DNA of 64,000 nucleotides. Origin: Pseudomonadota bacterium (lineage in GTDB: Bacteria > Myxococcota_A > UBA9042 > GCA-2863065). The notes under the pieces were generated by a model. That model was not told the origin of the DNA. It saw nothing but the letters and a program-made list of their open reading frames with translations, and ran no database searches. Location: NCBI GenBank assembly GCA_005776585.1, contig SXOX01000143.1, positions 6,032 to 70,031 of the forward strand, in the 5' to 3' direction. Made by a program: the position numbers and the translations under genes. Shown piece after piece: positions 19,773 to 45,700 of the stretch (its first letter is position 1; every line of letters begins with the position of its first letter).

Positions 19773-20498
19773 CTAGTACGTGGTGAAGTCCGGGTGAGTG
19801 ACGAGAGCGACACAGACCGCCGTCCATCCCGCGAGCGGCGACTGCGCCGTGTGCTCGACCGAGGCGTAGAGCCAGCGCCACGGCTCCAAGTGGGCGTCGT
19901 CGGTCACGGTGGCCGTCAGGCGCCGGCCGTGAAACCGCAACAGCAGAGCGCGGAGGTTGTCTTTGATCTTCTCCGGAGCCGACTTCCAGGTATCCGTTGG
20001 CGACGACGACGCGAAGAAGACCGGCGAGGCGCCGCCATCGGCCGCGGCGAGCTTTCCGCACACCGAGCGCGCTGCGTCTCCCAGGAACTTCATGAAGAGG
20101 GTCGAGGCCGTGAGGTCCTCCTGGGTGATCTCGACGAAGTCTGGCCTGCCCAGCGTCTTGCCGAGCTGCTGAAACAGGTTGACCTCGGCTTGCCCCTGCT
20201 TCTCCGTCCAGCCGATGCCACCCGTCACGCGCCGAATCGCGGCGTCGAGCTGATCGATGTTCATGCGCCTGCGCGGTCGTTGCAGCGGCTCGGCCACCGG
20301 TGACAGCGGCAACAGGGCGACCTCGCCCTCCGGATGAACCGCGACCTGGGCCGGCACCTGCACGGGTGCCGCCTCCGCCGGGGGCAGTCCAGGCTCGAGG
20401 TGGCCTGGCGTGCTGCTCGGCGCGACTGGCGTCTGAATCACGGCATCGCGCGCGCATCCGGCGACCAGAATGGGCAAAAGACAGGCGAGGTGTCTCAT
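19773..20498 (-). CDS. lipoprotein, function unknown
   Basis: Start trimmed to ATG 20498 (ATGA overlap with the upstream gene), giving MRHLACLLPILVAGC (lipobox). Sits between the CxxCH protein and the DUF1501 gene. Confidence 0.7.
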   Translation of the reverse strand: MRHLACLLPILVAGCARDAVIQTPVAPSSTPGHLEPGLPPAEAAPVQVPAQVAVHPEGEVALLPLSPVAEPLQRPRRRMNIDQLDAAIRRVTGGIGWTEKQGQAEVNLFQQLGKTLGRPDFVEITQEDLTASTLFMKFLGDAARSVCGKLAAADGGASPVFFASSSPTDTWKSAPEKIKDNLRALLLRFHGRRLTATVTDDAHLEPWRWLYASVEHTAQSPLAGWTAVCVALVTHPDFTTY

Positions 20499-22057: not shown

Positions 22058-22093
22058 GTCGCGAGCCCTCCGGCGTGAGGTGGCGAGCGCGTC

Positions 22094-22112
22094 GTGGGAC
22101 GCACGATCCCAC
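22094..22112 (-). terminator. weak hairpin downstream of the giant gene
   Basis: GTGGGA (22094-99), 7-nt loop, TCCCAC (22107-12), 49 nt past the stop at 22161. No T-tract. Confidence 0.25.
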
Positions 22113-22160
22113 CAAGCTACCTACGCGATCCCGCTGCCGGAGGCAACGCAGAAGGTGAGC

Positions 22161-22430
22161 CTACGGCGTCTTGAGTTTGGTCTCCCCCGTGGAGCACTTG
22201 CCACCGAGGAGGAGGGTAAACTCGGTGCGTCGGTTCTTCTCGTAGTCGATCTCATTGGGGTTGTCGGCCCGGTACACCGGCTTGCTGGCACCGAAGCCGC
22301 GACGCGTCAGCAGCTTGGCCTCGACGCCGAGTCGGACGAGTTCGGCCTTGACGACCTTGCCGCGGTTCTTGGACAGCGTGAGGTTCTTGAGGTCGTTGCC
22401 CTCCTCACTGGCGTGACCGTCGACGCCGAC
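22161..22430 (-). repeat. direct repeat copy 1 (3' end of the giant/OmpA ORF); copy 2 is at 39884-40154
   Basis: My manual alignment gives 15 substitutions plus one 1-nt indel over 270 nt. Homology starts exactly at the stop codon (cta). Confidence 0.9.
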
Positions 22431-32800: not shown

Positions 32801-35800
32801 CGTTGACCGCCGTAATCGTAAACGTCACCGTCTTGCTATCGGTCTTGGCGCCGCCCGAGCCCGCGCTGCCCTGGTCCGTCACATCGACGACCACCTTCGC
32901 GGTCGCGCCCGTGAAGTTTGCCGTCGGGCTGAAGCTCAACGTCGCCAGCGCCGCGTTCACGTTGGTCAGCGTGCCCGTGAACGCCATCGCGGGGTCGCTG
33001 TTGCCGTCCCCCGCCGAGAACGACAGGCCCGTCACGCTGCTCAGGTTCACCGTGCCGTCCGTCGCCGTCAGCGTCACCTTCACCGACGCCGCGTCCTCGT
33101 CTGCGACCGACACCACGAGCCCCGCGCCCGTGAACGCGAACGTGCCGTCTTCGGTCACCGTCTGCGCCCCCGGCGCCGTAATCGCCGGCGGATCGTTGAC
33201 CGCGTTCACCTGCAGCGGCACGTTCGCCGTCACCTGCTTCGCCCCGCCCGTGCCCGTCTGGCCCCCGTCGCTCACCGTCACGACCAGCGTGTCTCCGCCG
33301 TCGTAGTTGCCGTCCGGGTCGTACTTCAGGCCGTCCAGCGCCGTCGTCGTCGCCGCCGGCGTGCCCGAGAACGTCATCGTCGCGTTCTTCGTGCCGTCGC
33401 CGGTCGTAAACGTCAGGCCCGTCGTGCCCGACAGCGAGAGCTTGCCGTGGGTCACCGTCAGCGTCGTCGTGACGGTCGTTGCGTCCACGTCCGACACCGC
33501 GATCGCGTTGCTGTTGCCCGCGTTGAACGTCAGCACCGCGTGCTCCGCCACCGCCTGCGTCGCCACCGGGGCGGTGACCGACGGCGCGTCGTTGACCGCC
33601 GTCACTATGAGCCCGATGTCCGCCGTAAAGGACTTCTCCCCGCCCGAGCCCGTGTTGCCCCCGTCCATGAGCTTGACCTTCAGGGTCTCGTTCGACGTCG
33701 CGTTCAGCGCCGTCGTAAACGTCGCGTTCCCGGCCGTCAGATAGGTGTTCAGGTCGGTCAGCGTGCCCGACAGTGTGAGCACGCCCGTGCCGGAGCCCGA
33801 CGCCGTCACGCCGCCGCTGCTCGACCCCGTGACGGTGCCCGACGCCACCGTCAGCGTCGCCGTCATCGTGCCCGTGCCCACGTCCAGATCGCTGAACGTC
33901 AGGCCGGACAGCGACTTCGCGACGTCCTCGGTGACCGCAAACGAGCCCCCCGGCGCGGAGACCGTCGGACCGTCGTTGACCGCGCTGACGGTGATGCTGC
34001 GCGCCAGCGTGTGCGACTTGGCTCCCCCGGAACCGGTCGCGCCCTGGTCGTCGGCCTTGACTGAGATCGACGCTGTGCCATTGAACTGTGCCGTCGGCTT
34101 GAAAACCAGGCCATCCAGCGCGGCGTTCACGTCATCCAGCGTCCCCGTGAACGTCATCGCCGCGTCCGAATCGCCGTCGCCCGCCGTAAACGTCAGGCTC
34201 GTCGTCGTCGCCAGCGTCGCCGTGCCGTCGCTGACCGTCACCGTCATCTGGAACTCCGAGGTCCCCACGTCCACATCCGACACCGCGAACGCGTTGGCCC
34301 CCGACAGCGTCAGCGCCGTGTCCTCGGTCGTCGACGGCGCCACCGGGCCCGACATCACCGGCGCGTCGTTCACCGCCGCCACCGTCAGCGCGATCGTGTG
34401 CGTCGCGTTCACCGTCCCCGCGAACGCCGCGTCATCCACCTCGATGGTCACCGCCGCCGCGCCGTTGTACTGCGCGTTCCCCAGGAAGCTCAGCGTCGCC
34501 AGCGCCGCATTCAGGTTGGCGACCGTGCCCGTGAACGTCGCCCCGCCGCTCGAGGTGAACCCGCCCGCGTCCAGCGTCAGGCCCGTCGTCGTCGTGATCG
34601 TGAACGTCCCGTTCGACGTGCTCAGCGTGACCGACAGCGTCGCCGGGTCCGGATCCGTGATCGACACCTGGTTGCTGCCCGTGAACGCGATGCTCTCGTC
34701 CTCGTTGGGTGCCGCCGTCGCCGGTGCGGTGATGGTCGGGAGGGTGTTTGGCGCGACGCACGAGCCCCCAGACAGCGTATTGCCCCCAGAGCAGCTGAGG
34801 CAGTTGTTGGAGCTCGGACCGTTGCAGGTTGCACAGCTGCCGTCGCACGCCCCGCAGAGGCGGTTCGTCGAGGGCGTGCACGCGATGACCTCGTACTGAG
34901 ACGCCGTGCAGGCCGGGCTACACGCTTGGCAGGTTGCGCCGAAGAAGCCGGTCGCGCAGGTGCACGCGCTGCCGGGCGTCGGGCAGGTAAAGCCGGCCTC
35001 GACGACACACACGCTCGAACAGCCATCGCCGGCTGTGGTGTTTCCGTCGTCACAGCCCTCGCCAGCGTCGAGCGCGCTGTTGCCGCAGGTGTCGGGCGCA
35101 AACGTCTTCGCGAAAATCTCCGAGGCCGTGCCATTGCCGCCAGACCAGGCAACCAGGTACTTCCCGCTCGTGGTCCCAAAGACGGCGGACTGCAGCACGG
35201 CCGTCTTCTGCGTGTCTCCAGCAGCCGGTTGGAAGCTGATGCGGAAGTCCGTTCCGAACTCGTTGCCGACCGAGGGGCCTTCACCCACGAGCTCCTGGCC
35301 GAAGATCTCGATCTCGTCTTGAATCGCGCCATCGATGTCGTCGTCGCCGGTCCACGTGACGAGGAAGCGCTTGTGCGCGTGGTTGTAGGTGACGAACGGA
35401 TTGCCGGCGCCAAACCCGACGTTGCCGTCGGGCCCCGCGTCACTCAAGCGGAGGTCGGCTGCGCCCTGGACGGTCCCGACGGCCGCGACGAGCCGGCCAA
35501 ACACCTCGATCTCAGTCGTATTGGTTGCACCCAGGTTAGCCGAAAATGCGATGAGGTACCTATTTGCGGCCTCACTCCACGCGACGTGGCTTTGTCCCGC
35601 GCCAATCCGCTCGGCGATCTTGAAGTCCGTGCCCAGCTCCGCACCTGTGGATGCGTGGAGCCGCTGGCCGAGGATCTGGCGGCTATTCGGCGGGTTCGCC
35701 GTATTCTGGGTGTTGCTCCACACGACGAGGTACTCGCCCGCCGTCGCGTTGTAGGCGATCGCCGGAAAGTTGCAGTTGACGTTCGCTGAGGACGCGTCCA

Positions 35801-36416
35801 CCAGCGGGACGTCGACAAGAAATTGTGCGCCAGATGCGGTGCCAGAACTCGACACGAGCCGGGCGCCGATGCGCACCTGAAAGCCCAGGGTCAGGTCATC
35901 GGACTCCCAGGCCACCAGAAAACCGCCCGTCGCCGTGTTCGCCGCGACGGTCGGGTTGAGGTCGAGCGCGAACGACCCCGCGGTTTGATCCGAGAGCTGC
36001 TGCGCTGAACCGGAGAGGGCGCCGGCGGCGGTGACGAGCTGCCCGAAGATCTCGTTCTCGTTCTGGGTGTCCGCGGACTCCTCGTCCCACACGACGTAGT
36101 ACGTGTTCGTGTTGGCGTTCCACGCCACGGCCGGTCGCGCCGGAAAGGTTGCCGACGAGCGGATCTCGATGACAGACCCAAGCGCTGCAAAGCTGCCGTC
36201 GAGGCGCTGCCCGAGGATCTTCTTGCTCGTCGTGTTGCGGAAGACGAGCAGGTACTCATTCGAGGTCGCGTTGTAGGCCAGCCCCGCATCGGTGTTGCGC
36301 GCCCCTTGGGACGTGAGCTGGATGTCGGTCCCCGAGATCGTCGGGTTGGCACTCGCCAGCGACGCCCCGCCGAGACAAGCAAGGACCACCGTGAAGACAA
36401 AAGATGTACGCTTCAT
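22161..36416 (-). CDS. giant secreted mosaic surface/adhesin-like protein, continuous in frame with an OmpA-family outer-membrane protein
   Basis: Uninterrupted 4751-codon ORF. GGAGGG lies 6 nt upstream of ATG 36416. Signal peptide MKRTSFVFTVVLACLGGASLASA. Recognisable modules throughout (see sub-features). All overlapping ORF-track entries are low-complexity Arg/Pro/Ser translations. Confidence 0.9.
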   Translation of the reverse strand: MKRTSFVFTVVLACLGGASLASANPTISGTDIQLTSQGARNTDAGLAYNATSNEYLLVFRNTTSKKILGQRLDGSFAALGSVIEIRSSATFPARPAVAWNANTNTYYVVWDEESADTQNENEIFGQLVTAAGALSGSAQQLSDQTAGSFALDLNPTVAANTATGGFLVAWESDDLTLGFQVRIGARLVSSSGTASGAQFLVDVPLVDASSANVNCNFPAIAYNATAGEYLVVWSNTQNTANPPNSRQILGQRLHASTGAELGTDFKIAERIGAGQSHVAWSEAANRYLIAFSANLGATNTTEIEVFGRLVAAVGTVQGAADLRLSDAGPDGNVGFGAGNPFVTYNHAHKRFLVTWTGDDDIDGAIQDEIEIFGQELVGEGPSVGNEFGTDFRISFQPAAGDTQKTAVLQSAVFGTTSGKYLVAWSGGNGTASEIFAKTFAPDTCGNSALDAGEGCDDGNTTAGDGCSSVCVVEAGFTCPTPGSACTCATGFFGATCQACSPACTASQYEVIACTPSTNRLCGACDGSCATCNGPSSNNCLSCSGGNTLSGGSCVAPNTLPTITAPATAAPNEDESIAFTGSNQVSITDPDPATLSVTLSTSNGTFTITTTTGLTLDAGGFTSSGGATFTGTVANLNAALATLSFLGNAQYNGAAAVTIEVDDAAFAGTVNATHTIALTVAAVNDAPVMSGPVAPSTTEDTALTLSGANAFAVSDVDVGTSEFQMTVTVSDGTATLATTTSLTFTAGDGDSDAAMTFTGTLDDVNAALDGLVFKPTAQFNGTASISVKADDQGATGSGGAKSHTLARSITVSAVNDGPTVSAPGGSFAVTEDVAKSLSGLTFSDLDVGTGTMTATLTVASGTVTGSSSGGVTASGSGTGVLTLSGTLTDLNTYLTAGNATFTTALNATSNETLKVKLMDGGNTGSGGEKSFTADIGLIVTAVNDAPSVTAPVATQAVAEHAVLTFNAGNSNAIAVSDVDATTVTTTLTVTHGKLSLSGTTGLTFTTGDGTKNATMTFSGTPAATTTALDGLKYDPDGNYDGGDTLVVTVSDGGQTGTGGAKQVTANVPLQVNAVNDPPAITAPGAQTVTEDGTFAFTGAGLVVSVADEDAASVKVTLTATDGTVNLSSVTGLSFSAGDGNSDPAMAFTGTLTNVNAALATLSFSPTANFTGATAKVVVDVTDQGSAGSGGAKTDSKTVTFTITAVNDAPTIAAPATRSVAEDAVLTFTGTGNVVSVADVDAASGAVKVTLTPTNGTVTVTQLTGLTFSGGSDGTDDAPMTFTATVTAANNALATLSYKPTADFNGAATLKVDIDDQGNTGGAAQTATKTVTLTVTEVNDTPSASADSKSTGEDTPLTFAASDLTSNDSKGPANESAQTLTVALVGGATAQGGTVALSGGNVTYTPKAHFNGTDTFTYTVTDNGTTDGVSAPKTSTAATVTVTVSASNDAPTAVADSVNGTEDVDVTITAATLLSNDLDPDKADTVPDVLTVTSVQGANKGTVSLSGTTITFKPQLNFNGSGSFQYTLKDSANVTSSATVTVNLAVANDLPVAVDDAAQTYESTPVSIPVLANDTDVDTADTTPDVLTVKSVTQPASGGTVTINGDKLGVTFTRSGSFAGTTTFTYTVTDKANATATATVTVKVKACGDGERNVSDGEACDDGNTTAVDGCAANCTAIEFGFACNTNTPNVCTSLCGDGKKASNEACDDGCGNNGCAAADNGDGCSQACAIEAGFTCTGNNPTVCVASCGSVFNFATGVQDWTITGSGSGAGAFAHGASAFGGGTGFETGLGAPKLPATAVDTTIRRQIAIPATSAAIPKTQLVVSYKLQGDGTNQCLDVFVNPTGSTAGAPNAHTCANATALTTLTVDVASLGGTSPTAVVRFTSAGGAGATAFEGAFVGRIDVRSDVDGDSKGEFGAQAGCDPCIDVDQDGFGAAGSATPAQCTGGAAEDCVDGNDQIFPTKIELCSNNVDDNCNTKTDLLDAQCGEDCTDGLDNGSNGLTDCADVACTGDPFCSPCSIDFTFDSGAGQGFVPTGPMAYLPGAPTQGLPLSNGVWKTGGATGLGVDATRKIAHLTRTFAVPNAVTGGPAPRLEVVYKLQGNPNPAFDVMGVCFNVAPGGACDKDNAAAVVVGNKTPNNALPQPSYTDGTQDHLVIDLKAHLGQSVTVTVFFDTVVPNLVLTPGLAIDRIVVASDVDGDALQEGASTQCDPCWDGDKDGYSDAASPRMANGTPGPSQCPNFGKPDCNDVVAAINPGKTEVCNTPDDDDCDGFLNGNDSDCGTEDCANGKDDNGDTKIDCLDASCTNDAACAVCAKTFTFTTGDAGLIPDDNDPDNNAATRVFQYGASTLNAGDKGWETVLNGNVSSVQTGGQTSVKAFLARTLTIPAGMPFPSLLIRYANRGEASTSKDIFGVCLDPQTPKTQCKAAGDKKYVIFESGKKTASGLFDTVSVPLPPEKAGQSVDVVLFYDTLDNNNNDNPGLFISEVTLQSDRDDDKKPELSGSNACDHCIDADADGYGDATLPYNGDLSACPQSKADCNDNPLASGATTHPDQAEQCAVPGDNDCNGLDDPQELACSVCSDTKITAGETCDDGNTTSGDGCSATCQTEAGALAITEVHIKKLSGLPGEQWIELYNRSNAKIDLGSLGLKLKNQQGQVQTFASDCAVALGKKGEVAAKGFYVIALGPQNGSDGLPADAFCDGQFQLSQVGDQLQLLDGTSAVLDLLDFTGYACELGHAADTNKSRSIELQSATTQTNASNDDASVWCLSAGTATYSTSKTHLGTPGAATSCGELVCDGQDDDCDGTIDQGLPDGDGDKVCNEQDCDAAVATCTTNCKIDLDKDNLDDCKDPCLDGDGDGYGVPGGAANAVCPKTGTDCDDTRKAINPGGTETSAADACNDSFDNDCDGQVDCVDAACTASPECAGETCASALPVACGETKSLVPFDNAFPCGSGADGVLKLSATTTETVTFRVKNAGTKQYSVNVFVNGCADLTCAGSALAVSSTCADGGQGSLSVNAGSTYTLVVDEVAACGGSGSPAADVTVVCGEQCTGGKDEDADGLVDCADDDCVLVAACANADFDQDGIKNGVEILCGHDPKSVLDVPTSDEVANPDNDLLLNCVDPDDDDDQASDATEATECPLNPEAKNTDKIRPGAAKNCKLAGIDADCNKQFDTTEASCGAKEQQCGDGNDNDGDTAIDCLDTDCLTDGICAKEDFDKDGVSNGFELLCNTDPESKASVPGPLLANDLDNDGLPNCSDTDDDADGHSDIEELVCGSNSLNQASVPKNTDGALPGGDTQCDASDLDDDADGFVDTFELGCGSDPLLGTSTPIDAAHDQDADGICDVEDADRDGDTWANNVEQVCGTDPTVNSDNPGTAGLDVDGDHLCDVIDPDDDNDQWTDAKELLCQTDPRDASSVPVDTDKNGVCDLLDQDEDGDGWANAVETTCGTDPKKKADNPKDNGQDADADQLCDKVDPDDDGDNWDDDTEQKCGTNAHDPLSLPTDTDGDKLCDPLDNDEDNDGWLNATEALCKTDPKSALSKPVDTDGDGVCDVVDPDADPDGDLWKTSDETFCGTDPKSAASVPVDTDKDGLCDPKDLDQDADGWPNDQETACGSDPLSAASHPVDTDKDGICNTQDTDDDGDGAPDVTETTCKTDPLDGSLKPTIDDLTDTDGDLTLNCVDLDDDNDAEPDLAELAIGTEKNKPDTDGDGLKDGAEDADHDGVTQPKETSPLKTDTDGDGLSDGLEVAASSCYGVDAQNNCLKTDPTNPDTDGDGLLDGDEDANHNGKPDGDVSAGETYPTKADTDGDTENDKKELFCHTNPLDPKSVSEDKDQNGDCDGSQSDADKDGVSDGVEVYCGTDPLSSTSTPSLESLEDTDGDQIIDCKDPDDDNDLVSDKEEGICGTDSLNKASTPAAPELLDYDQDGTLNCADQDDDDDGLSDAQEQVIGTNTRDQDSDEDGLTDGKEVNTTQTDPKERDTDQDGVQDGTELGVNQPTKDTDATKFKADADPTTKTNPLNPDTDADKLKDGEEDLNGDGKVGDPPESDPLDPTDGLFDTDGDGLTDHDEKLGIKNVSNGKVTKTDHKDPDSDDDGLNDKLELLVYGSDPLDGDSDDGGVNDKDEVDNGTKPLVKDDDYSVAKVIGDNVFRCDASGRPGAGTGALAVLLLAGLVLLARRRARVLPLLVLAALAVPMMAPTGASAQATAEVNIENFMPGGGRYRIWSVEESMVGPKWQPYASVLFYGERKPLFLKAGNHEEILVESQTFCDIGLGVGLADWAQIELSLPVAIQMTSADDVKAIAPVSGAGLGDMTFRVRGKLLNNQTGGFGIGMSFGLTLPTGNKDKFRGDPTVGVLLNTIFDYRTDRTVTALNLGFRFRPKESTLFGTTFGHELTFGLGIDVAAWIDRVHLDLEIFGRTPLTKDFFSSLDSTNLEVLFGPKFWVISGLSIQAAVGAGLVQGYGAPNFRFLAGLQWAPRTNDSDGDGIEDRADECPLSPEDKDGFADNDGCPEWDNDKDGIVDAEDKCPNQAEDWNGVEDKDGCPDGDADGDGVADALDRCPSEREDKDGYQDDDGCPELDNDGDGVQDTADKCPNLPGPAEKQGCPDGGSTTKYVEKIIEVEKECARTLPEYVIFAKGKWDLTAEAKKTLEVVAKKILENKLVIEVGVDGHASEEGNDLKNLTLSKNRGKVVKAELVRLGVEAKLLTRRGFGASKPVYRADNPNEIDYEKNRRTEFTLLLGGKCSTGETKLKTP
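23886..23972 (-). other. MYXO-CTERM-like tripartite sorting signal located internally (aa 4149-4177)
   Basis: CDASGRPGAGTG + ALAVLLLAGLVLLA + RRR, that is a Cys/Gly motif, a hydrophobic helix and an Arg cluster. This arrangement normally forms the extreme C-terminus of a protein. Confidence 0.55.
24042..27188 (-). repeat. ~1050 aa array of thrombospondin type-3-like calcium-binding repeats (aa ~3077-4125)
   Basis: Dozens of DxDxDGxxDxxDxDDDxD units. Many occur in a longer ~45-50 aa super-repeat, (E)xxCGTDPxxxxSxPxDTDxDGxCDxxDxDxDGDGW. Confidence 0.8.
28062..28589 (-). other. lamin-tail-domain (LTD)-like module (aa ~2610-2785)
   Basis: LAITEVHIKKLSGLPGEQWIELYNRSNAKIDLGSLGLKLKN...FYVIAL...LSQVGDQLQLLD matches the LTD hallmark (INE...EfvELyN...vdLsGw.L). 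It is preceded by a Myxococcus-type Cys-rich repeat, ETCDDGNTTSGDGCSATC. Confidence 0.65.
28683..31172 (-). repeat. three paralogous ~270-295 aa modules (aa 1749-2017, 2018-2312, 2313-2578)
   Basis: Each module opens with F-x-F-(A/D/T)-(T/S)-G (SVFNFATG, SIDFTFDSG, AKTFTFTTG). Each has a beta-rich body with (V)VYKLQG/LIRYANRG and a (D)VDGD/DRDDD acidic turn. Each ends in Cys-rich DCxDxxxxxxPxxxExCxxxDDDCxG motifs (putative metal-binding motif as in MopE-like proteins). Confidence 0.65.
31488..34739 (-). repeat. ~11 tandem ~95-100 aa Ig/cadherin-like repeats (aa 560-1643)
   Basis: Units are delimited by VNDAP/VNDGP/VNDPP/VNDTP/SNDAP/ANDLP and contain ...TLT(V)T..G(T)...GLTF..GDG.....MTFTGT....N.AL..L.Y.P...F.G. 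This is typical of large bacterial adhesins. Confidence 0.75.
35097..36347 (-). repeat. 7 x ~51-69 aa protein repeat (aa 24-440), beta-propeller-like, family not recognised
   Basis: Recurring signature [AV]-[AV]-[WY]-N-x5-[YF]-L-[VLI]-[VA]-[WF] then I/V-F/L-G-Q/R-x-L-x5-G. Examples: GLAYNATSNEYLLVF, AVAWNANTNTYYVVW, TVAANTATGGFLVAW, AIAYNATAGEYLVVW, HVAWSEAANRYLIAF, FVTYNHAHKRFLVTW, AVFGTTSGKYLVAW. The aromatic anchors are at aa 59, 110, 170, 233, 291, 355 and 424. Confidence 0.7.
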
Positions 36417-36545: not shown

Positions 36546-37349
36546 CTAGGCGGCCCCCGGTCGCTCCACCGAAAAGACCAGATACGCGAAGTCTGCGCCC
36601 TTCACTGGCGCCGCCCGCCCGAGACGTAGACCGCGACGCAGATAGCCCTCTTCGAGGCGGCTCTCCCAGGGAACCGCATGAAAGCCGTGGCGGCTCCATG
36701 CCGGCTCCGTCCAGCCGACGGCGTGCTCTTTTGCGGTCAACGCGACCACGTAGATCCCGGTCTCGAGCGCCTCTCCAGCCGGTCCTCCAAGCGCAACCAA
36801 TGCGGCTCGGCGCTCCTGCCCGCCGCTTTGGTTCACGACCTGCTCGGTGACCACGAGCTGCAGCGGCAGCCCGGCGCGCATGGGCACCGTCATGCGGACC
36901 GGGCCCGAGACCACGTGCGCGTGCTCACCCAGGCGGGGCTCGTGGCGGTAGCTCAGGCCAAGGAACGACCCTGCGGGGTAGGCGACCTGGACCTGGAGCG
37001 ACTTCAGGTCGGGTCGGGCTGCGAGCCCGTGGAGCCCGACCAGCCCCAAGCGCACTCGGCCCTCGAACGTGGCGCGGGCCTCCTCGGCGAGCCTCGTGTT
37101 CGAGACCACCGCTCGCAGCCCTGCGAGGCGAAACGGCTCCGCGTCCGGAGTCGCCGTGCGCAGGTACTCCCACGGCCCGCCCTCGAGGCGTCCGCTCGAG
37201 ACCCAGCGCGCGACACTCGGGCTCGGTCGCGCTTGGCGCGTTGCTGCTATCGCGTCGTCGGTCGCCATGGTCGCCGCGACCGCGCCGCCCACGAGCGCCG
37301 AGGCGTCTTGGAGGAAGCGTCGTCGGCCTTGCGTCTTCATTTCGGTCAT
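36546..37349 (-). CDS. Tat-signal secreted protein, function unknown
   Basis: Start trimmed to ATG 37349 with GGGAG 7 nt upstream. MTEMKTQGRRRFLQDASALVGGAVAATMA is a twin-arginine signal. No family recognised. Confidence 0.7.
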   Translation of the reverse strand: MTEMKTQGRRRFLQDASALVGGAVAATMATDDAIAATRQARPSPSVARWVSSGRLEGGPWEYLRTATPDAEPFRLAGLRAVVSNTRLAEEARATFEGRVRLGLVGLHGLAARPDLKSLQVQVAYPAGSFLGLSYRHEPRLGEHAHVVSGPVRMTVPMRAGLPLQLVVTEQVVNQSGGQERRAALVALGGPAGEALETGIYVVALTAKEHAVGWTEPAWSRHGFHAVPWESRLEEGYLRRGLRLGRAAPVKGADFAYLVFSVERPGAA

Positions 37350-37431
37350 CTTGCGTCTCCCGTGCTGGTAGGAACGTGGGCCGCATGCTATCCGATCCTT
37401 GTACTCGATTGCCAGATGGGAGCCAAAGTCG

Positions 37432-37731
37432 ATGTCCAAGGTGCTGCTGTTGAGCGATTTCGAGCCGCACGTCGGGGCCCAGTTCGACGTGAGCTGGCCG
37501 GAACCCGAGTCGAGCGTTCCGCTGACGCTCTTGGAGGCCGTGCCGATTCAACGCTCCACGGACGGGCGCAGCTTCGCGCTGAGGTTCGATGGGCCTGCGG
37601 AGCCTCTTCTGCCGCAGCAGATCCACGAGCTCCTTCACCCCGACCAGGGACCGTTGCAGCTGTTCTTGGTCCCAGTCGTAGGCGCACGCCCTGGTCGGCT
37701 CCTGTACGAGGCGATCTTCTCGCGCCTTTAG
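37432..37731 (+). CDS. small (99 aa) conserved hypothetical, possibly DUF6916-like
   Basis: GGGAG lies 8 nt upstream of ATG 37432. The pattern FEPHVGAQFDV....PLTLLEAV......GRSFALRFDGPAEPLLPQQIHELLHPDQGPLQLFLVPV....RLLYEAIF matches my recollection of a small family often found beside tail-collar triplets. Name is from memory. Confidence 0.65.
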   Translation: MSKVLLLSDFEPHVGAQFDVSWPEPESSVPLTLLEAVPIQRSTDGRSFALRFDGPAEPLLPQQIHELLHPDQGPLQLFLVPVVGARPGRLLYEAIFSRL

Positions 37732-38207
37732 TGGGCGCCTCTGGCGCCGATCCAGCGAAGGGCGAGGTAGGCGCCTTCGTCGGCGACGAGCGTGAACTCG
37801 AGCCGATCGTAGAGCCGGAGGGCCGGGTTGTCGCGTTCGACGCGCAGGCCAATCGACCGTCCCGCGTCCTGCGCGCCTGCCTGGAGGGACCGCAGCAGCT
37901 GTGTGCCCAGGCCGCGTCCTCGCCACTCGGGAACCAGACAAACATCAACAACGTACAGCTCTGTCTGGCGGGGCTCGACCCAGAGGCGACCCACGCGCTC
38001 GTCTTCGATCCAAAGGATATGGTCGTTTTCGACGCTGAAGCGGCGCGCGTAGTCCACCCGCTGGGCTTCGAGCTGCTGGCTCAGGACTGCGTCTCGGAGC
38101 GCATCCGGCAGCGCCGAGAACATCGCCGCTCGCTCCAGACGAAAGAGCGCCGCGAGAAAGGGCTCGTCCGTCGTTTGGCGCGGAACGCTCCGCAAGGCCG
38201 TCTGCAC
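37728..38207 (-). CDS. GNAT family N-acetyltransferase
   Basis: GTG start 14 nt after the collar gene stop. The acetyl-CoA motif region VCLVPEWRGRGLGTQLLRSL and the tail NPALRLYDRLEF are GNAT hallmarks. Its stop overlaps the stop of the convergent gene 37432-37731 by 2 nt. Confidence 0.85.
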   Translation of the reverse strand: MQTALRSVPRQTTDEPFLAALFRLERAAMFSALPDALRDAVLSQQLEAQRVDYARRFSVENDHILWIEDERVGRLWVEPRQTELYVVDVCLVPEWRGRGLGTQLLRSLQAGAQDAGRSIGLRVERDNPALRLYDRLEFTLVADEGAYLALRWIGARGAH

Positions 38208-38221
38208 GCGTCGTCGTCCGT

Positions 38222-38734
38222 CTAGCTGCGCGGCGGAAAGATGCCCTGCAGCGCAATCGCGAAGGTGACGGCGAGCGACGGCATCCGGTTCTCGTGGGCC
38301 GCAGGAGACGCCGTGATGGCGTCAGCCCGCAGGAGGCCCGTTGGCGTTCCTTGCCGCGCGAACATGCTGAGGGAGTTGTCCGCCAGGAAGGAGCCAGCTG
38401 GGTTGGCCGCGCCGGCGGAGTCGATGACGCCCTGAAGTGGATGCGAGTGGGGCGGGACCTGCGACTCGGTCAACGTGACACTCGCGACGCCGCCGGTCTC
38501 ACCGAGGCTACGGAACGACAGCCCTGGACCCTGACCCCAGTGCATCGGAACTCGGCCTTGGAGATCAGGGAGCCCGAACGTTGTCTGGCCATTTCCGCCA
38601 ACCGTCGTTCCGAGGAGGGAGACGAGCGCCGTGTTCTGCGAGATGGGCATGATCTGGCCGTTGCAGGCTGCCCAGCCCTTGGGAGCGAAGGTGAAGGCAA
38701 AGGGACGAATCTCAGCGACAAAGGGCTCGGACAT
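38222..38734 (-). CDS. phage-tail-collar domain (MdpB/COG4675-like) protein, paralogue 1
   Basis: GGAGGA lies 5 nt upstream. MSEPFVAEIRPFAFTFAPKGWAACNGQIMPISQNTALVSLLGTTVGGNGQTTFGLPDLQGRVP, then PPHSHPL, and C-terminal IALQGIFPPRS. Confidence 0.88.
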   Translation of the reverse strand: MSEPFVAEIRPFAFTFAPKGWAACNGQIMPISQNTALVSLLGTTVGGNGQTTFGLPDLQGRVPMHWGQGPGLSFRSLGETGGVASVTLTESQVPPHSHPLQGVIDSAGAANPAGSFLADNSLSMFARQGTPTGLLRADAITASPAAHENRMPSLAVTFAIALQGIFPPRS

Positions 38735-38746
38735 GAGGTCCTCCGA

Positions 38747-39247
38747 TCATGATTGCGTGGGAAAGATACCAAAGAGGGCGATGATGAACGAGATGCACTG
38801 GTACGGCTGCATGTTCTCATGCGGCTGTGTGCCGTAGACCCCCGCCTTGAAGGAGGCGGGCAACATGGCTCGGGTCGTCCCTTCGCCATAGGCGGGGAGC
38901 GACGCCGTCGTGAGGAGCCGACCCGTGGGATCGGTCGAGGCGGTGCCGGGTGCGGCCGTATTCAACGCGTGGCTGTGAGCCGGCAGCTGGCTCGCGATCA
39001 GCGTGACCGTCTCCGAGCCGCCCGACTCCCCGATGATGAAGCCGTTTCCCTGATGCAGGGGCACACGGCCGCGCAGATCGGGCAGCGCGAAGGTGCTCTG
39101 GCCATCGCCGCCATAGGTCGTACCGATGAGAGCGAACAAGGTCTCGCTCTCCGCGATGCTCTGAAGCGAGCCATCGCAGAAGGCCCAGCCGACCGGAGCG
39201 AAGTTCCCGCCGAACATGCGAATCTCGCCAACGTACGGTTCTGCCAT
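38747..39247 (-). CDS. phage-tail-collar domain (MdpB-like) protein, paralogue 2
   Basis: AAGGA lies upstream. MAEPYVGEIRMFGGNFAPVGWAFCDGSLQSIAESETLFALIGTTYGGDGQSTFALPDLRGRVP, then PAHSHAL, and C-terminal IALFGIFPTQS. Confidence 0.88.
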   Translation of the reverse strand: MAEPYVGEIRMFGGNFAPVGWAFCDGSLQSIAESETLFALIGTTYGGDGQSTFALPDLRGRVPLHQGNGFIIGESGGSETVTLIASQLPAHSHALNTAAPGTASTDPTGRLLTTASLPAYGEGTTRAMLPASFKAGVYGTQPHENMQPYQCISFIIALFGIFPTQS

Positions 39248-39295
39248 GCGGTTCCTTTCGGTCTCCGCCCGCGTGAGCGGCGGAGCTCCTTGGTA

Positions 39296-39808
39296 TCAAT
39301 TCTGAGACGGGAAGATCCCCTGGAGCGCGATGCAGTAGTTTATGGTCAAGAACGGCTGTTGATTCGAGTGCGGCTGACCGCCACCGCTCGAGTTGCCGAG
39401 GGTGCCTGCCGCGAGCGGCGACGTGAGGGCGCCGGTTCCGTAGACGGGCGCAGACGATGCCGCGAGGATCGCGCCGCGCGGTGTGCCGGTGAAGCCCGCC
39501 GCGCTGGTGACCGCGATGCCGCCACCGCCCAACGTGTGGCCTGGCATGTGGTTCGCTGCGAGCGTCACGTTCGTTTCGCCGAGCTGCATGCCGATAGGAA
39601 TGTCGTTGCTCTTGTGGAGCGGCACGCGACCCCGAAGATCCGGCAACCCGAACGTCGTCTGGCCATTCCCCCCGAAGTTCGTCCCAAGGAGCGCAAACAG
39701 GGCCTGGTTCTGGTTGATCGCGAGTAGCTGGCCGTTGCACTGGGCCCACCCCTTCGGTGGAAAGCCGAAGCTGAAGGGTCTGATTTCGCCAATGAACGGC
39801 TCTGTCAT
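39296..39808 (-). CDS. phage-tail-collar domain (MdpB-like) protein, paralogue 3
   Basis: Start trimmed to ATG 39808 with AGGAGGAG upstream. MTEPFIGEIRPFSFGFPPKGWAQCNGQLLAINQNQALFALLGTNFGGNGQTTFGLPDLRGRVP. The HSH motif is replaced by PGHTL. C-terminal IALQGIFPSQN. Confidence 0.88.
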   Translation of the reverse strand: MTEPFIGEIRPFSFGFPPKGWAQCNGQLLAINQNQALFALLGTNFGGNGQTTFGLPDLRGRVPLHKSNDIPIGMQLGETNVTLAANHMPGHTLGGGGIAVTSAAGFTGTPRGAILAASSAPVYGTGALTSPLAAGTLGNSSGGGQPHSNQQPFLTINYCIALQGIFPSQN

Positions 39809-39883: not shown

Positions 39884-40316
39884 CTACGGCGTCTTGAGCT
39901 TGGTCTCCCCCGTGGAGCACTTGCCTCCGACGAGGAGGGTAAGCTCAGTGCGTCGGTTCTTCTCGTAGTCGATCTCATTGGGGTTGTCGGCCCGGTAGAC
40001 CAGGCTTGCTGGCACCGAAGCCGCGCCGCGCGAGGAGCTTGGCCTCGACGCCGAGGCGGACGAGCTCGGCCTTGACGACCTTGCCGCGGTTCTTGGACAG
40101 CGTGAGGTTCTTCAGGTCGTTGCCCTCCTCGCTGGCGTGCCCGTCGACGCCGACTTCGGCTCCGTCGTGCACAGCGCCTCCGTCGCGTTCAGGCACCGCC
40201 GCCACCGACTCTGCCGCTGCCGCTGCCGCTGCTGCTGTCGCCGACTCCGGTGCCGGTGCCGTTACTGCCGCCGGTGCCAAGCCGAGCTCGGCACCTCCGG
40301 GCCGGCGGAGCGGCAA
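39884..40316 (-). pseudogene. truncated, frameshifted OmpA-domain gene remnant (mosaic of two parts of the giant gene)
   Basis: 39884-40154 is the diverged copy of 22161-22430, with a 1-nt insertion near 39993 that breaks the frame. 40149-40197 matches 25810-25858 (the TSP3 region) at ~46/52 nt. Upstream is Ala-rich low complexity with no signal peptide, and the first half of the OmpA domain is missing. Confidence 0.8.
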
Positions 40317-41278: not shown

Positions 41279-42073
41279 GTGCTTCGTGCCCTCGCCATCA
41301 CGGGTGTCCTTGCCGCCACGGTTTCGGCGTGCGCCGTCGCCGCACGCGACTCTGAGGCTGCCGACACGCGGTCGCTGCGGGCGCACGAGCCGTCCTGGTA
41401 CGTGCTCGGCCGCTACTCGACGACGGTCAAGCCCGAGGAGCTCGAGCGCAACGCCAACATCGATCTCGGTACCCGGCGTGTCGACGGCTCCGTCATTCCG
41501 CCCGGCAAGCGCTGGTCGTTCAATCAGCGCGTCGGGGAGCGCAGCTTCGAGCGGGGCTATCGCGCTGCACCCACGCTCACCATCGAGGGAAAGCGCGCAG
41601 CCGTCGGCGGGGGTATCTGCCTCGTCAGCTCCGTCGTGTTCAACGCGGTGCTCCTCGCCGATCTCGCCATCATTCAGCGCGCACCCCACTCCCGGCCCAT
41701 CCCGTACGTGCCGCTCGGCCGTGACGCCACGGTCTCCTTCGGGCACCACGATCTCGTCGTCGAGAATGGCCACCCGTTTCCGGTCCGTCTGCGGGCCTGG
41801 ATGGACGGCTCTCGCATTACCGTCGAGGTGCTTGGGACTGCGCGGCTTGCGCACGAGATCGCCCTTGAGACCGCCGACGAGGAGCCCGCCAGCCTTCGCC
41901 GCGAGATTCAGGCGCTGCCCACGGGTGACGACAAGATCCGTATTGGCGGCGTGTGGGTGCGCCTCTACCGCCATCGAAAGCGGCACGGCTCGGTCGTAGC
42001 CACCGAGCGCATCGGGACCTCGAGCTACTATCCGTTTCGAATCGTCCCGCGCGACGAGCGGCGCTCCCCGTGA
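41279..42073 (+). CDS. VanW-domain lipoprotein
   Basis: GTG start, lipobox ATVSAC. PGKRWSFNQRVGERSFERGY...GGGICLVSSVVFNAVLLADLAIIQRAPHSRPIPYVPLGRDATVSFGHHDLVVEN is the VanW core. Confidence 0.85.
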   Translation: MLRALAITGVLAATVSACAVAARDSEAADTRSLRAHEPSWYVLGRYSTTVKPEELERNANIDLGTRRVDGSVIPPGKRWSFNQRVGERSFERGYRAAPTLTIEGKRAAVGGGICLVSSVVFNAVLLADLAIIQRAPHSRPIPYVPLGRDATVSFGHHDLVVENGHPFPVRLRAWMDGSRITVEVLGTARLAHEIALETADEEPASLRREIQALPTGDDKIRIGGVWVRLYRHRKRHGSVVATERIGTSSYYPFRIVPRDERRSP

Positions 42074-42078
42074 GAGCA

Positions 42079-42714
42079 ATGCTGCTTTTCACGGTGGCGC
42101 TGTCGCGACTCGCGGCCGCCGAGGAATCGCCCTTTCTCGAGACCGCGCGCCCGTTCGCGGCGCTGCACGGCCCTCGCCTCGTCGCCTTGGCGCGCGCCAC
42201 GCTGGATCGGGTCGTCCTGCACGGCGACTCCGACCCGCCGACGCCGCCACAGGGTGTCCCTGCGCCGTTTGGCGTGTTCATCACGCTCGTCCGCGACGGC
42301 GACGTCCGTGGCTGCTACGGCACGATGGAGCCCTCCAGCCGCTCGGTCGAGGGGCTCGTCGTCGACGCAACCCTCGGTGCCGCGCGTCAGGATCCGCGCA
42401 ATCGGCCCATTGCGGGACACGAGCTCGGCCGCATCGAGATCGTGCTGTCGTTCGCGGGCCCCACGATCCCGATGCTGGCCATGACCGAGGTCGATCCCAA
42501 GCGGGAGGGCCTGCTCGTCCGCGCGGGGTTGCGCAATTCGGTGCTGCTGCCGGGCGAGGCGCGCACGGCGCGATGGCAGCTCCAGCGCAGCCTGCGTCAG
42601 GCCGGAATTCGTCGCGGCGAAGCCTACGAGATGTTCCGCTTTCGCACGGTGACGGTGTATGAACGCGGCGGCGCGGGAGTCGCCCGCCGCCGCACAGGGG
42701 GTCGTGCCCCCTGA
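42079..42714 (+). CDS. AMMECR1-domain protein with an apparent N-terminal signal-like segment
   Basis: ATG 42079 lies 6 nt after the VanW stop. FGVFITLVRDGDVRGCYGTMEP and AARQDPRNRPI match the AMMECR1 signature (LRGCIG ... DPRF.P). The N-terminus is MLLFTVALSRLAAAEE. Confidence 0.75.
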   Translation: MLLFTVALSRLAAAEESPFLETARPFAALHGPRLVALARATLDRVVLHGDSDPPTPPQGVPAPFGVFITLVRDGDVRGCYGTMEPSSRSVEGLVVDATLGAARQDPRNRPIAGHELGRIEIVLSFAGPTIPMLAMTEVDPKREGLLVRAGLRNSVLLPGEARTARWQLQRSLRQAGIRRGEAYEMFRFRTVTVYERGGAGVARRRTGGRAP

Positions 42715-42732
42715 AGCCCTGGAGGAGTGCTC

Positions 42733-45700
42733 ATGTTGCGTTCGATTCGAATCCTGCTTTCCCTGGCGCTGGTCTGCGTCTCGTCGATGGCCTTGGCCGC
42801 GGACACGGACCCACCGGGCCTCGACATGCCCCGTGGCGTCATCAAGGGCAAGCTCGTGCGCGAGGACACCGCCGATCCCATCGGTCGCATGTGGCTCACC
42901 CTGTCTGCGCCCGACCGGCGCTACTCGCGCTCGGCCTCGACCGACACCTTCGGGCGCTTCGAGTTCGTTCACATTCCCAAGGGCGACGGCTATCGACTGA
43001 CGTTCTTCAACGACGGCTACGCGACGCGCGAGTACGGCCCCTTCTCGGTCAAAGACGAGAGCACCCCCGTCACCCTCGACTGGAAGGCCAAGCCCGTACC
43101 GCCCCAGGCCGTGCCGTACACGTACAGCGACACCTTCCTGCCCGGAGAGAACATCACCGTGATGGTGCGCTCCATCCGGGTCGTCGCCGTCGACGTCGAC
43201 GTCTATCGCGTGCCGGCGGCCGAGGTGAAGGAGAAGCTCTCGGGCTTCACCGACCGCAAGCGCCTCAAGCTCGAGAAGGGCTGGAAGCCGGTGCTCACCT
43301 ATCGGCAACCGGTGGCAGCCAAGGGCGACCTCATCTGGAGGCAGTCCAAGGTCGAGCCGGCGTTCCAGGATCCGGGCCTCTACGTGATTCGGGTGCGTGC
43401 GGGCACGACTGAGAAGCTCATCCCGGTCGTGGTCACAAACCTCGCGCTCGTCACCAAGCGCACTCCTGACGCGGTCTGGGTCTGGGCCGCCAACCTGAAG
43501 ACGGGCGCGCCCGTGGCCGGCGTCGAGGTGGGCTGCGAGCCCGCCGATCCGACCGGCAAGGCGCTCAGCCCCAAGCCCGAGGCGTGTGCGTCGGGCACGA
43601 CCGACAAGAGCGGCCTCGTGAAGTTCGCCGGCAGCGGCAAGGGCAATCTGCGCTACTGGGGCTTCTCGGGCGAGAGCATGGGTTACGTCGACACCGTCCC
43701 CTCCGCCGCGGCCAAGAGCCTCGAGTTCCGGACCTACGTCTACACCGATCGCCCCGCCTATCGCCCCGGCGATGAGCTGAGCTTCAAGGTCGTCGCCCGT
43801 TCCAGCGAGGCGGGCTCCTATCGCGTGGTCCCCAACGAGGAATGGACGGTCACGATCAAGGACCCGGAGGACGAGGTCGTCTCCACCAAGACCTACACGA
43901 CGGGCGCGTTCGGCACCTTCAACGGCGCCTTCGTGCTGCCGCCCGAGCCGGCGCTCGGCACGTGGTCCATCACCGCGGAGTCCGATGGTCGGGTGCAGTC
44001 CGGCTTCTTCAAGGTGCTCGCCTATCGCAAACCGGACTTCAAGCTCGATCTCTCCACGCCGCGCCCGCAGGTCGTGCAGGGAAACCCGGTGCAGGTCGAC
44101 GTGAGCGGCCAATACTACTTTGGCGCGCCCCTGCGGGGGGCCAAGGCCACGTATACCGTCTACGAGACGCAGTTCCGGCCCTGGTGGTACGACACCTATT
44201 GGGGCGAGTACGAGGGCGAGGGCGCCGAGACGTATGGATACGGCTCCGTCGTACAGAACGGCACGGTCACCCTCGACGACGCCGGGCGGGCCCGCATCTC
44301 CGTCGAGGTCGAGCGCGCGAGCGTGGACCGCAACGTGACCGTCGAGGTCGTCATCGCCGATGCGACCGGCCGCGAGGTCTCCGCGCGCCAGAAGGTGCTC
44401 GTCACGCGCGGCACGTTCAGCCTGGGCGTCGTCTCCGATGGCCGCATCTACAAGGTCGGCGAGACGGCCACCTTTACCGTCGACACCGCCCGCTTCGATG
44501 GCGCGCCCTCGTCGCGGCCCGTGACGCTCACCGCGTCGCTCGAGACCTGGGACGCCGCGCACAAGATCTGGATCTACAAGGATCTCGCCACCCAGTCGGT
44601 AACGACCGACGTGAAGGGCAAGGCGACGTGGAAGTACAAGGTCCCGCGCGACGGCTTCATCCGGGTCGAGGCCGCGGCTGAAGACGAACTCAAGAACCCC
44701 ATCGTCCAGTCGTCGTTTTTTTGGGCGACCAAGGCCGCCGTCGTCTCCGGCGGCTACAAGAAGAAGTCCATCGACATCGTGGCCGATCGCGGGGGCTACA
44801 AGTCCGGTGACACGGCACGCGTGCTCGTGAATACGACACGTGAGTCGCCCTGGGTGCTGTTCACGGTCGAAGGCGACGGCGTCTTCGAAGCGCGCGTCGA
44901 GAAGGTCACCGGCAACAGCCGGATGGTGGAGGTCAAGCTCGGACCCAAGCACGCGCCCAACGTCTACCTCGGGGTCGCCTACGTCGGGGACAAGCAGTTC
45001 GGCTCGCTCCAGCGGAGCATCGAGGTCTCGCCCAAAGAGAAGATCCTCAAAATCGGGCTGGCCTCGGACAAGGCCGTCTACGAGCCCGGCCAGAAGGCCA
45101 AGTACACGGTCACCGTGACCGATCCCGCGGGGAAGCCGGCGGAGGCGGAGGTCTCGCTGGCGCTCGTCGATCAAGCCATCTACGCGATCTCGCCGGAGCT
45201 TGCGCCCGACATGGCCCGTTTTTTTTACGGCACGCGGCCCAACCCCACGACGACCTCACACTCGTTTCCGCAACGATACTTGGGCGGCGCGGACAAGGAC
45301 ACCGAGGACAAGTCCTCGAAGCCGCGACGGGACTTCAAGGACACCGCGTTCTGGCACGCGGCCGTCGTGACCGACGCGACCGGAAAGGCCGTCGTCGAGA
45401 TCCCGCTCCCGGACAACCTGACGACGTGGCGCCTGACCGTGCGCGGCGTGACTAAGAGCACGCTAGTTGGGACCGCGACCCACGAGATCAAGACCTCGAA
45501 GAACCTGATGGCTACCATCGCCCTCCCGCGGTTCGTGCGCCATGGCGACCGCATCGAGGTCGTGGGCATGATCCACAACCGCAGCGAAGACCTGCCGGCC
45601 GTCACGGCGACGCTTTCGGTGAAGGGCGAGGCGACGATCGACGGCGCGGCGACCATTACCATTCCCATCAAGTCGAACACGAGCCACGCGCATCGCTGGG

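Follow-up and report, generated by a model that had tools for sequence, protein, structure and literature searches.

In gp12 (PDB 1OCY and 1H6W) and gp37 of phage T4, a collar domain (Pfam PF07484) is followed by an HxH motif, within a domain of ~170-190 residues. This domain is an intertwined trimer that binds lipopolysaccharide (LPS), in which the HxH motif of every chain contributes to a metal site on the axis of the trimer. A triplet of collar genes has been described in virophage DSLV2, where the three consecutive collar proteins (QIG59353-QIG59355) co-purify and give one band of ~55 kDa in native polyacrylamide gel electrophoresis, which was read as a 1:1:1 heterotrimer (PMC12724248). 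These tripartite tail proteins assemble into short fibres of 16 nm and attach to Synechococcus cells, for which LPS has been proposed as the receptor, and virophage collar proteins fall into positional clades (PMC12724248). In bacteria, rhiABC contains one Collar gene, with RhiA and RhiC lacking a Pfam domain, and is under RhiR/RhiI quorum-sensing control (PMC13133039). Here, we describe a bacterial group of genes found in a 64,000-nucleotide stretch (the window) of contig SXOX01000143.1, assembly GCA_005776585.1, in which three tandem collar genes (A, B, and C) lie together with genes encoding a GNAT N-acetyltransferase, a DUF6916 protein, a protein with a twin-arginine translocation (Tat) signal, and a giant surface protein.

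The bacterial triplet is like that of DSLV2 in having three consecutive PF07484 genes of similar size on one strand, in a fixed order and with a clade of its own for each position. However, the DSLV2 proteins are virion components encoded beside capsid genes, whereas the bacterial triplet is chromosomal, lacks virus genes, and has bacterial partners; the likeness between the two is one of arrangement. With gp12 and gp37, the cassette proteins share the succession of collar domain and HxH motif as well as the domain size. The T4 proteins differ in that they are homotrimers on a long virion shaft and need phage chaperones, whereas the cassette encodes three different, shaft-less chains.

Small, signal-less bacterial collar proteins outside prophages are also represented by RhiB and MrpB, and by COG4675, named “microcystin-dependent protein.” Such COG4675/Collar proteins, annotated as “microcystin-dependent” or “tail fiber,” are very common in soil and water bacteria, and COG4675 proteins have been detected in soil metaproteomes (PMC5579227). 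In contrast to rhiABC with its single collar, the cassette has three, along with the GNAT, DUF6916, giant adhesin, and Tat-signal genes, and the scanned open reading frames (ORFs) of the window gave no match to LuxI or LuxR domains.

The best explanation of the region as a whole, to which we assign a probability of about 0.55, is that it represents a copy of a widespread bacterial cassette, spread both vertically and horizontally, that is built around a domesticated phage receptor-binding module. A search of collections with one genome per species, for which an alignment of collar B served as the query, gave more than 596 matches, from which 80 loci were taken, and 85 loci in total were analyzed with hidden Markov models (HMMs) built for this survey. 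Exactly three tandem, co-directional collar genes were present in 78 of the 85 loci and two triplets in 3 others. The remaining 4 loci were clipped by contig ends or frameshifted, and no uncut, unbroken locus contained one or two collars.

The partners of the triplet were similarly conserved. Of the 48 loci flanked on either side by at least 5 kb (“complete” loci), 46 contained a GNAT gene (counted as cassette-type within 6 kb of the triplet), 42 a DUF6916 gene, and 43 a giant ORF of at least 500 residues with Ig-like repeats; all 3 were found in 39. The recurrent gene order was G>A>B>C>(T>)N>D<, where G denotes the giant gene, T the Tat-signal protein, N the GNAT, and D the DUF6916 protein. 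As the same set recurs in 80 independent species genomes, this arrangement is far beyond chance. The window contains the triplet, the cassette-type GNAT gene, and the DUF6916 gene as a contiguous set with the N>D< convergence kept. It thus holds a divergent copy, with a changed gene order, of a cassette that is very widespread but undescribed.

The original prediction, which was made from the letters of the window alone, had called the triplet an orphan, a description that does not hold given the number of matches in species genomes. The small convergent gene, the GNAT, and the Tat-signal protein, for whose co-occurrence with such triplets it had proposed a survey, all proved to be recurrent partners, the Tat-signal protein being frequent without being universal.

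The species genomes with a cassette belonged to Pseudomonadota (alpha, beta, and gamma), Acidobacteriota, Chloroflexota, Verrucomicrobiota, Actinomycetota, Bacteroidota, and Methylomirabilota, to which plasmid and chromid records added Deinococcota and Bacillota, for a total of at least nine phyla. Replicons of cultured bacteria with the cassette included those of Aminobacter, Paenibacillus, Deinococcus, Ruegeria TM1040, and Sinorhizobium. The same cast of genes was seen on the contigs of three collar B relatives, two of which came from acidobacterial metagenome-assembled genomes (Thermoanaerobaculia and Blastocatellia) and one from a contig of 1.6 Mb: a giant Big_9/Cadherin protein, three Collar proteins, DUF6916, a GNAT, and a protein of ~250 residues without a Pfam domain. 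The nearest relative of the window’s DUF6916 protein (44% identity) was likewise encoded on a Joint Genome Institute (JGI) contig, where a GNAT, a Big_9/Cadherin_5 protein, and a triplet of Collar proteins are also encoded. In a reverse test, four out of four DUF6916 proteins that had been picked only for their long contigs were found to adjoin collars, a GNAT, and a giant gene. Our searches of the published literature found no paper on this bacterial cassette and no paper mentioning DUF6916, and on secretome evidence and the function of RhiB/MrpB they added nothing to the papers cited here. The fixed, seven-part composition makes the cassette a concrete and testable object, for which several culturable carriers are available, namely Aminobacter aminovorans KCTC 2477, Ruegeria sp. 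TM1040, Deinococcus ficus CC-FR2-10, Ensifer adhaerens, Paenibacillus sp. 37, and Chiayiivirga flava DSM 24163. The locus on pAA01 of Aminobacter aminovorans, with the collars WP_067968327, WP_067968330, and WP_067968333, represents a typical cassette.

All genes of the window’s cassette were found where the original prediction had placed them (Table 1). The window proteins exceed the Pfam gathering scores of 24 bits for Collar (PF07484) and 27 bits for DUF6916 (PF21880), which for the small convergent gene agrees with the identity that had been suggested for it. The scores of the GNAT also exceed the gathering cut-offs, placing it in the GNAT superfamily.

Table 1. Features of the cassette and its surroundings, with positions in the window.
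Feature	Position	Strand	Length	Evidence
Collar A (position 1)	39296-39808	minus	170 aa	Pfam PF07484 Collar, E 1.1e-28, 99.4 bits
Collar B (position 2)	38747-39247	minus	166 aa	Pfam PF07484 Collar, E 1.3e-28, 99.1 bits
Collar C (position 3)	38222-38734	minus	170 aa	Pfam PF07484 Collar, E 1e-25, 89.9 bits
GNAT N-acetyltransferase	37728-38207	minus	159 aa	Pfam Acetyltransf_7, E 5e-10 (40 bits); Acetyltransf_1, 36.8 bits; FR47
DUF6916 protein (convergent with GNAT)	37432-37731	plus	99 aa	Pfam PF21880, E 1.4e-23, 83.2 bits
Tat-signal protein (T family)	36546-37349	minus	267 aa	Twin-arginine motif RRRFLQ and hydrophobic region; no Pfam domain
Giant surface protein	22161-36416	minus	4751 aa	Pfam repeats and C-terminal OmpA
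OmpA remnant (copy of the 3' end of the giant gene)	39930-40200	minus	~270 nt	Pairwise DNA alignment; Pfam OmpA on ORF 39975-40316

The finer details of the arrangement, too, were confirmed from the sequence. The intergenic gaps A-B, B-C, and C-GNAT measure 48, 12, and 14 nt, and the collar genes are preceded by the Shine-Dalgarno sequences AGGAGGAG (A), GAAAGGA (B), and GGAGGA (C). The stop codons of the GNAT and DUF6916 genes have 2 nt in common, the overlap of the two genes by coordinates being 4 nt, and the start codons of the DUF6916 gene and the divergent Tat-signal gene lie 82 nt apart. The length of the GNAT depends on its start codon: 159 residues from a GTG, versus 131 residues in public gene calls, which use an ATG at 38123. 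Scans for sigma-70 promoters and terminators gave results at or below chance level. The GC content at third codon positions is 0.79-0.83 in the six small cassette genes versus 0.92 in the adjacent giant gene, and the bin of 38-40 kb has the second-lowest GC content of the window (0.649); these low values could point to another origin or to another level of expression.

Each collar chain consists of four parts: the collar domain (residues 1-65), a stretch leading to PxHxH (residues ~89-93), a variable segment, and a conserved C-terminus with the pattern GGSQPHxNxQPY...IALxGIFPS. The variable segment comprises ~40-55 residues between HxH and QPH, and both its flanks are conserved. The collar identity of A, B, and C and their common C-terminal IAL.GIFP, both read from the sequence in the original prediction, were confirmed by the ORF list and Pfam. 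All three matched the tail protein family phrog_9116 over their full length (E 1e-18 to 1e-26; 9.5e-21 for A). A sequence search of the PDB with collar B matched its N-terminal half to the phage tail fibres 8kec (E 5e-8) and 9qgo, and to T4 gp12 (1ocy, E 3e-4). Relatives of collar B at E<=1e-10 made up more than 8000 protein clusters (90% identity); among the matches listed at the top, most were 59-65% identical over the full length, with the JGI name “microcystin-dependent protein.” Collar paralogues of Solibacter have been reported as positively selected. Going by their domain order and these matches, each collar is predicted to be the counterpart, without a shaft, of the receptor-binding domain at the C-terminus of T4 gp12.

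PxHxH was present in 77 of the 78 proteins of position 1, 73 of the 78 of position 2, and 77 of the 78 of position 3, so the cassette family overall has the HxH that underlies the six-histidine feature of gp12 and gp37. In the window, B (PAHSH, with AHSH) and C (PPHSH, with PHSH) retain it, whereas A reads PGHTL, in which GHTL holds one histidine; with its second histidine gone, it is the sole position-1 protein without PxHxH. The original prediction had assigned PGHTL to the third paralogue, but it belongs to the first gene (39808>39296), with PAHSH in the second and PPHSH in the third, and rather than a feature of the family, it is a peculiarity of the window. Window collar B keeps the C-terminal QPHxNxQPY motif, while in C, compared with the position-3 consensus, the family motif GGxxPHNNxQPY has degenerated to SPAAHENRMPS.

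The three positions are clearly distinguishable. Out of 234 collars, 220 had their best non-self match in the same position, and the median identity between loci was ~70% within a position and 47-50% across positions, the latter being equal to the identity within a locus. The triplication of the collar must thus be old: by this pattern, A, B, and C are three ancient orthologous subfamilies whose order and 1:1:1 number are fixed across phyla. The window’s A, B, and C each best match their own position as well, with only 50-62% identity to their orthologues (at most 58% for A).

We consider it likely that the three chains A, B, and C intertwine as they fold in the cytoplasm and yield a single heterotrimer, with a metal ion bound by HxH on its axis and the variable loops forming a ligand-binding, probably glycan-binding, tip. 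This is favoured by the strict 1:1:1 number and fixed order of the genes, by the orthologous clades that the positions form, and by the experimental precedent of the DSLV2 triplet; the similarity to phage tail proteins (phrog_9116), to tail-fibre structures, and to T4 gp12 lends support as well. The heterotrimer put forward in the original prediction has therefore gained strong comparative support, while the fibre or lectin function and the cell-surface role proposed with it are still what we infer. An AlphaFold2 (AF2) model of the collar B monomer (118 aligned sequences) had no confident fold, with a predicted local distance difference test score (pLDDT) of 48 and a predicted template modelling score (pTM) of 0.18; such a low-confidence monomer would fit an obligately intertwined oligomer, without proving it.

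Alternatively, the three collars could form three separate homotrimers, each a lectin or fibre tip of its own, so that the cassette would supply three specificities. T4 gp12, whose structure was matched by collar B, and gp37 are homotrimers, and one of the DSLV2 proteins was also stable as a homotrimer in simulation (PMC12724248). Moreover, all three paralogues normally keep the full HxH, with which each could build its own six-histidine site. Independent homotrimers, however, should tolerate loss or duplication of single genes, whereas the collars come in threes or multiples thereof, in a fixed order and in positional clades. The loss of the histidine in window collar A would weaken a homotrimeric site three times, but a mixed site once, and the DSLV2 triplet co-purifies, which its authors read as a 1:1:1 heterotrimer (PMC12724248). 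On this evidence, we judge separate homotrimers to be improbable.

Given its collar domains, the tail-fibre label assigned by PGAP (“tail fiber protein”), and the matches to PHROG tail families, the triplet could also be read as what is left of the tail-fibre module of a prophage or tailocin. Domains of capsid, terminase, sheath, tube, baseplate, or integrase proteins were not found within the scanned regions of the window, where precomputed Pfam labels covered ~10 kb to either side of the cassette and another 20 large ORFs were scanned with Pfam. This is in line with the original prediction, which had held that the locus does not represent the tail module of a prophage. Among the labelled genes of the related loci, genes for phage structure, lysis, or integration were not found either. 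Only 8 loci were detected in the 2.9 million contigs of IMG/VR, versus more than 596 in species genomes, and relatives in phage genomes, most of them annotated as minor tail, tail fibre, or tail proteins, were less than 42% identical. As phage genes were not found in the regions and loci covered, viral contigs with the cassette are rare, and phage relatives are distant, and as the non-phage partners are conserved, the reading as a remnant was rejected as highly improbable. One of the IMG/VR contigs (UViG 2848685470_000004, 5.4 kb, labelled viral) carries nine tandem collar ORFs, probably three triplets, with no other genes visible.

The giant gene is a close neighbour of the triplet. In the 43 complete loci that contain it, it is co-directional with the collars and lies at a median distance of 58 bp from the triplet, in agreement with the link between triplet and giant adhesin that had been suspected from the window. 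The window’s giant protein has a Sec-type signal peptide, Cadherin_5, Big_9, and Cadherin_4 repeats, DUF4215 repeats, LTD, MopE and TSP3 repeats, and a C-terminal OmpA domain; its MopE and DUF4215 repeats would suggest an origin in Myxococcota. The surveyed giants carry Sec signals or, in Flavobacterium, a C-terminal domain like those of the type IX secretion system. Most share a C-terminal domain of ~300-400 residues, beta-helix-like and without a Pfam match, for which an HMM gave hits in 54 loci (for example, at ~8180-9442 in locus L008 and ~8200-9457 in L089). It is marked by the motif RLRQRxxTTxRLPGYGG and by a cysteine close to the terminus, with two to eight residues in between (GGAACPTPP is one such ending), and it could be a docking or sorting domain. 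In two Blastocatellia loci (L011 and L013), an IS200-type Y1 transposase gene (11539-11862) lies between the triplet and the downstream giant gene and appears to split off a beta-helix fragment of 105 residues.

In the window, the genes run A B C N>D< T G, versus the usual G A B C T N D, with the giant gene now downstream of T. The OmpA remnant upstream of collar A, noticed in the original prediction, occupies the usual position of the giant gene. It is ~95% identical to the 3' end of the window’s own giant gene (22161-22430), including the end of the OmpA domain and the stop codon, with an insertion of 1 nt, and the resulting direct repeat of ~270 nt brackets the whole cassette of 17.8 kb. 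This implies that the giant gene once stood directly upstream of A and was shifted by duplication or rearrangement. Outside the cytoplasm, the trimer would work with the giant adhesin, as its specificity-determining tip or as a co-receptor in cell-surface recognition or adhesion, a role that we hold to have about even odds. Together with the variable tip, this link to the giant adhesin hints at recognition between cells or of cell surfaces, which would be relevant to aggregation, biofilms, symbiosis, and predation.

GNAT and DUF6916 genes were almost always adjacent in the surveyed loci, typically convergent, and a natural fusion of the two exists in a protein of 267 residues (P0209; GNAT at 61-140, DUF6916 at 174-261), which argues that both act together. 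The window’s DUF6916 protein has no signal peptide and is confidently modelled as a small six-strand beta protein (AF2 pLDDT 88.8, pTM 0.81). A Foldseek search of the PDB with its model gave no significant match (best E 0.19), no PHROG family was matched, and a single-sequence word-index search returned only 2 proteins. For the GNAT, the nearest NCBIfam model was RimI (E 4e-7), far below its cut-off, and no specific equivalog was reached.

A dedicated GNAT for a signal-less secreted protein is known from Mycobacterium marinum, where the EsxA acetyltransferase carries out N-terminal acetylation (PMC10653941). In the cassette, as with this enzyme and RimI/J/L, a small GNAT is linked genetically to proteins that lack a signal and in which the initiator methionine is followed by a conserved small residue; the cassette GNAT may, however, acetylate an N-terminus, lysine, a sugar, or a small molecule. 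The conserved collar N-terminus, Met-Ala-(Glu/Gln/Asp)-Pro, is compatible with removal of the methionine and N-alpha-acetylation. We tentatively propose, at somewhat less than even odds, that GNAT and DUF6916 act jointly as cytoplasmic maturation factors, in which DUF6916 would be an assembly chaperone or adaptor and acetylation of the complex would fall to the GNAT, with the conserved collar N-termini, Met-(Ala/Ser/Thr)-Glu/Gln/Asp-Pro in their wider form, as plausible sites.

The tight coupling of the N>D< pair might instead be taken to mean that the GNAT, alone or with DUF6916, is an immunity or toxin-antitoxin-like module, and that the collars make up a secreted lectin-like bacteriocin or antagonistic factor. 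The bacteriocin-like tailocins reuse phage receptor-binding modules (PMC4684702), and there are other systems in which a GNAT acts as an immunity enzyme or as a toxin (PMC9177977). Yet no conserved member contains a toxin domain, none of the cassette members had a match in PADLOC, and the GNAT is not close to the families of tRNA-acetylating toxins. The usual convergence of the GNAT and DUF6916 genes, moreover, is unlike the organization of co-transcribed toxin-antitoxin pairs, and an antagonistic factor is quite improbable as a result.

How the collars would leave the cytoplasm is less obvious, as no N-terminal hydrophobic stretch was found in window collars A, B, and C, which agrees with the original prediction that they have no signal peptide. 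The neighbouring T protein does have a signal, as had been proposed along with its divergence from the DUF6916 gene and its lack of a Pfam domain. Its N-terminus, MTEMKTQGRRRFLQDASALVGGAVAATMA, shows a twin-arginine motif (QGRRRFLQD) followed by the hydrophobic region ASALVGGAVAATMA, corresponding by sequence to the pattern of an S/T-R-R-x-F-L-K-like motif and a hydrophobic region. BLAST and phmmer searches with the T protein found only the window’s own copies. An HMM seeded with homologues, from a family too divergent for exact counts, detected T homologues beside the triplet in ~28 other loci, usually after collar C and each with the twin-arginine motif. On related contigs, the N-termini of proteins of ~250 residues read TRRGFL, TRREVL, and RRREFLK.

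Other cassettes carry a different Tat-signal protein. DUF6916 occurs in a long form with a twin-arginine signal, and among the 22 loci with two DUF6916 genes, 17 hold one of each form. The T family (or its motif-based detection) was present in 32 of the 85 loci and the Tat-signal DUF6916 in 19; the two co-occurred in only one locus, and jointly they cover 50 loci (~60%). In Deinococcus ficus and in one other locus (L095), the same slot is taken by a Peripla_BP_6 protein with a twin-arginine signal. A DUF6916-like domain within the T family was considered, but the hhalign comparison was not significant (E 0.07, probability 0.8%), and no homology is claimed.

In Tat hitch-hiking, signal-less subunits are exported with a partner, as in the case of hydrogenase HybC with HybO and of DmsB with DmsA. 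The likeness to the cassette is an analogy of mechanism only: a folded, signal-less oligomer, cofactor-bearing in the known cases, would be encoded beside one twin-arginine partner. The cassette differs in having no redox cofactor, and 35 of the 85 loci lack a Tat partner. Because three unrelated families in one slot bear Tat signals while the collars have none, we nevertheless propose, as a possible but unlikely step, that the folded trimer exits the cytoplasm by hitch-hiking on its Tat-signal partner. Candidate carriers would be the T protein in the window, and the Tat-signal DUF6916 or the Tat-signal binding protein elsewhere. The recurrence of these partners raises a testable new export route for a folded phage-type trimer.

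The same data can be turned toward an intracellular role of the collars, as is suspected for RhiB/MrpB, with the giant and Tat-signal proteins being co-regulated neighbours rather than physical partners. The collars, the GNAT, and the short DUF6916 form are all signal-less, 35 of the 85 loci are without a Tat partner, and the GNAT and its fusion with DUF6916 must work in the cytoplasm, where acetyl-CoA is found. On the other hand, the collars have the fold of a receptor-binding domain that works outside the cell and bears a variable tip, 43 of the 48 complete loci have the giant gene next to the triplet in the same direction, at a median of 58 bp, and Tat-signal partners of three unrelated families recur in one slot. 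An intracellular role is thus unlikely in our estimation.

Several observations weigh against a domesticated receptor-binding module that acts at the cell surface with the partners described above. The collars are signal-less, and in 35 of the 85 loci a Tat partner was not detectable; the slot protein of Aminobacter and Ruegeria is devoid of a signal, too. The structural search with DUF6916 gave no relative that would suggest a chaperone role, the closest models of the GNAT are generic, and a PDB sequence search with the latter returned only uncharacterised GNATs. Among A, B, and C, the variable regions show no co-variation in length, which is uninformative, as these lengths hardly vary at all. 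In the window itself, collar A lacks one histidine, so that this copy may work differently or be decaying, and the HMM for the C-terminal domain of the giants had no hit, the giant protein ending in OmpA instead. Finally, the sequencing runs that contain the window consist of freshwater-metagenome DNA only, and no RNA run was found.

Taken to its full extent, the domesticated-module reading would make the phage tip, captured by bacteria of many phyla, part of a cellular organelle: an obligate, metal-centred ABC lectin, assembled and acetylated in the cytoplasm by a dedicated pair of DUF6916 and GNAT, exported in folded form by Tat hitch-hiking, and mounted on or working with the giant adhesin, with its fast-evolving loops setting the target of adhesion. 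We regard this combination as speculative and doubtful. If true, the lectin would found a class of its own among modular systems for surface recognition, and its export on a Tat-signal partner would be a hitherto unseen use of Tat hitch-hiking outside redox proteins.

Further observations concern the surroundings of the cassette. In the slot between C and the GNAT, Aminobacter (L107, 10071-11555) and Ruegeria TM1040 (L110, 10650-11867) encode a protein of 400-500 residues with weak FG-GAP/Tectonin (propeller lectin-like) similarity, which in Aminobacter has a Lys/Ala-rich, histone-H1-like N-terminus. The neighbours of the cassette in the window encode enoyl-CoA hydratase, VanW, AMMECR1, alpha-2-macroglobulin, histidine kinase, O-antigen ligase, and similar proteins. 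Just past the cassette, on the other strand (41279-47391), lie the genes for VanW, AMMECR1, and a bacterial alpha-2-macroglobulin of 1552 residues (MG2, A2M, and TED domains). Past the 3' end of the giant gene, planctomycete-type PSD/PSCyt proteins (DUF1592, DUF1588, DUF1595, DUF1587, and DUF1585), DUF1501, and PSCyt2 are encoded at 9503-11497, 18342-19772, and 20495-22120, and the O-antigen ligase at 16693-18300. An ORF at 57428-58618 with partial matches to IS66 transposase and IS66 Orf2 (TnpB) is probably a decayed insertion sequence.

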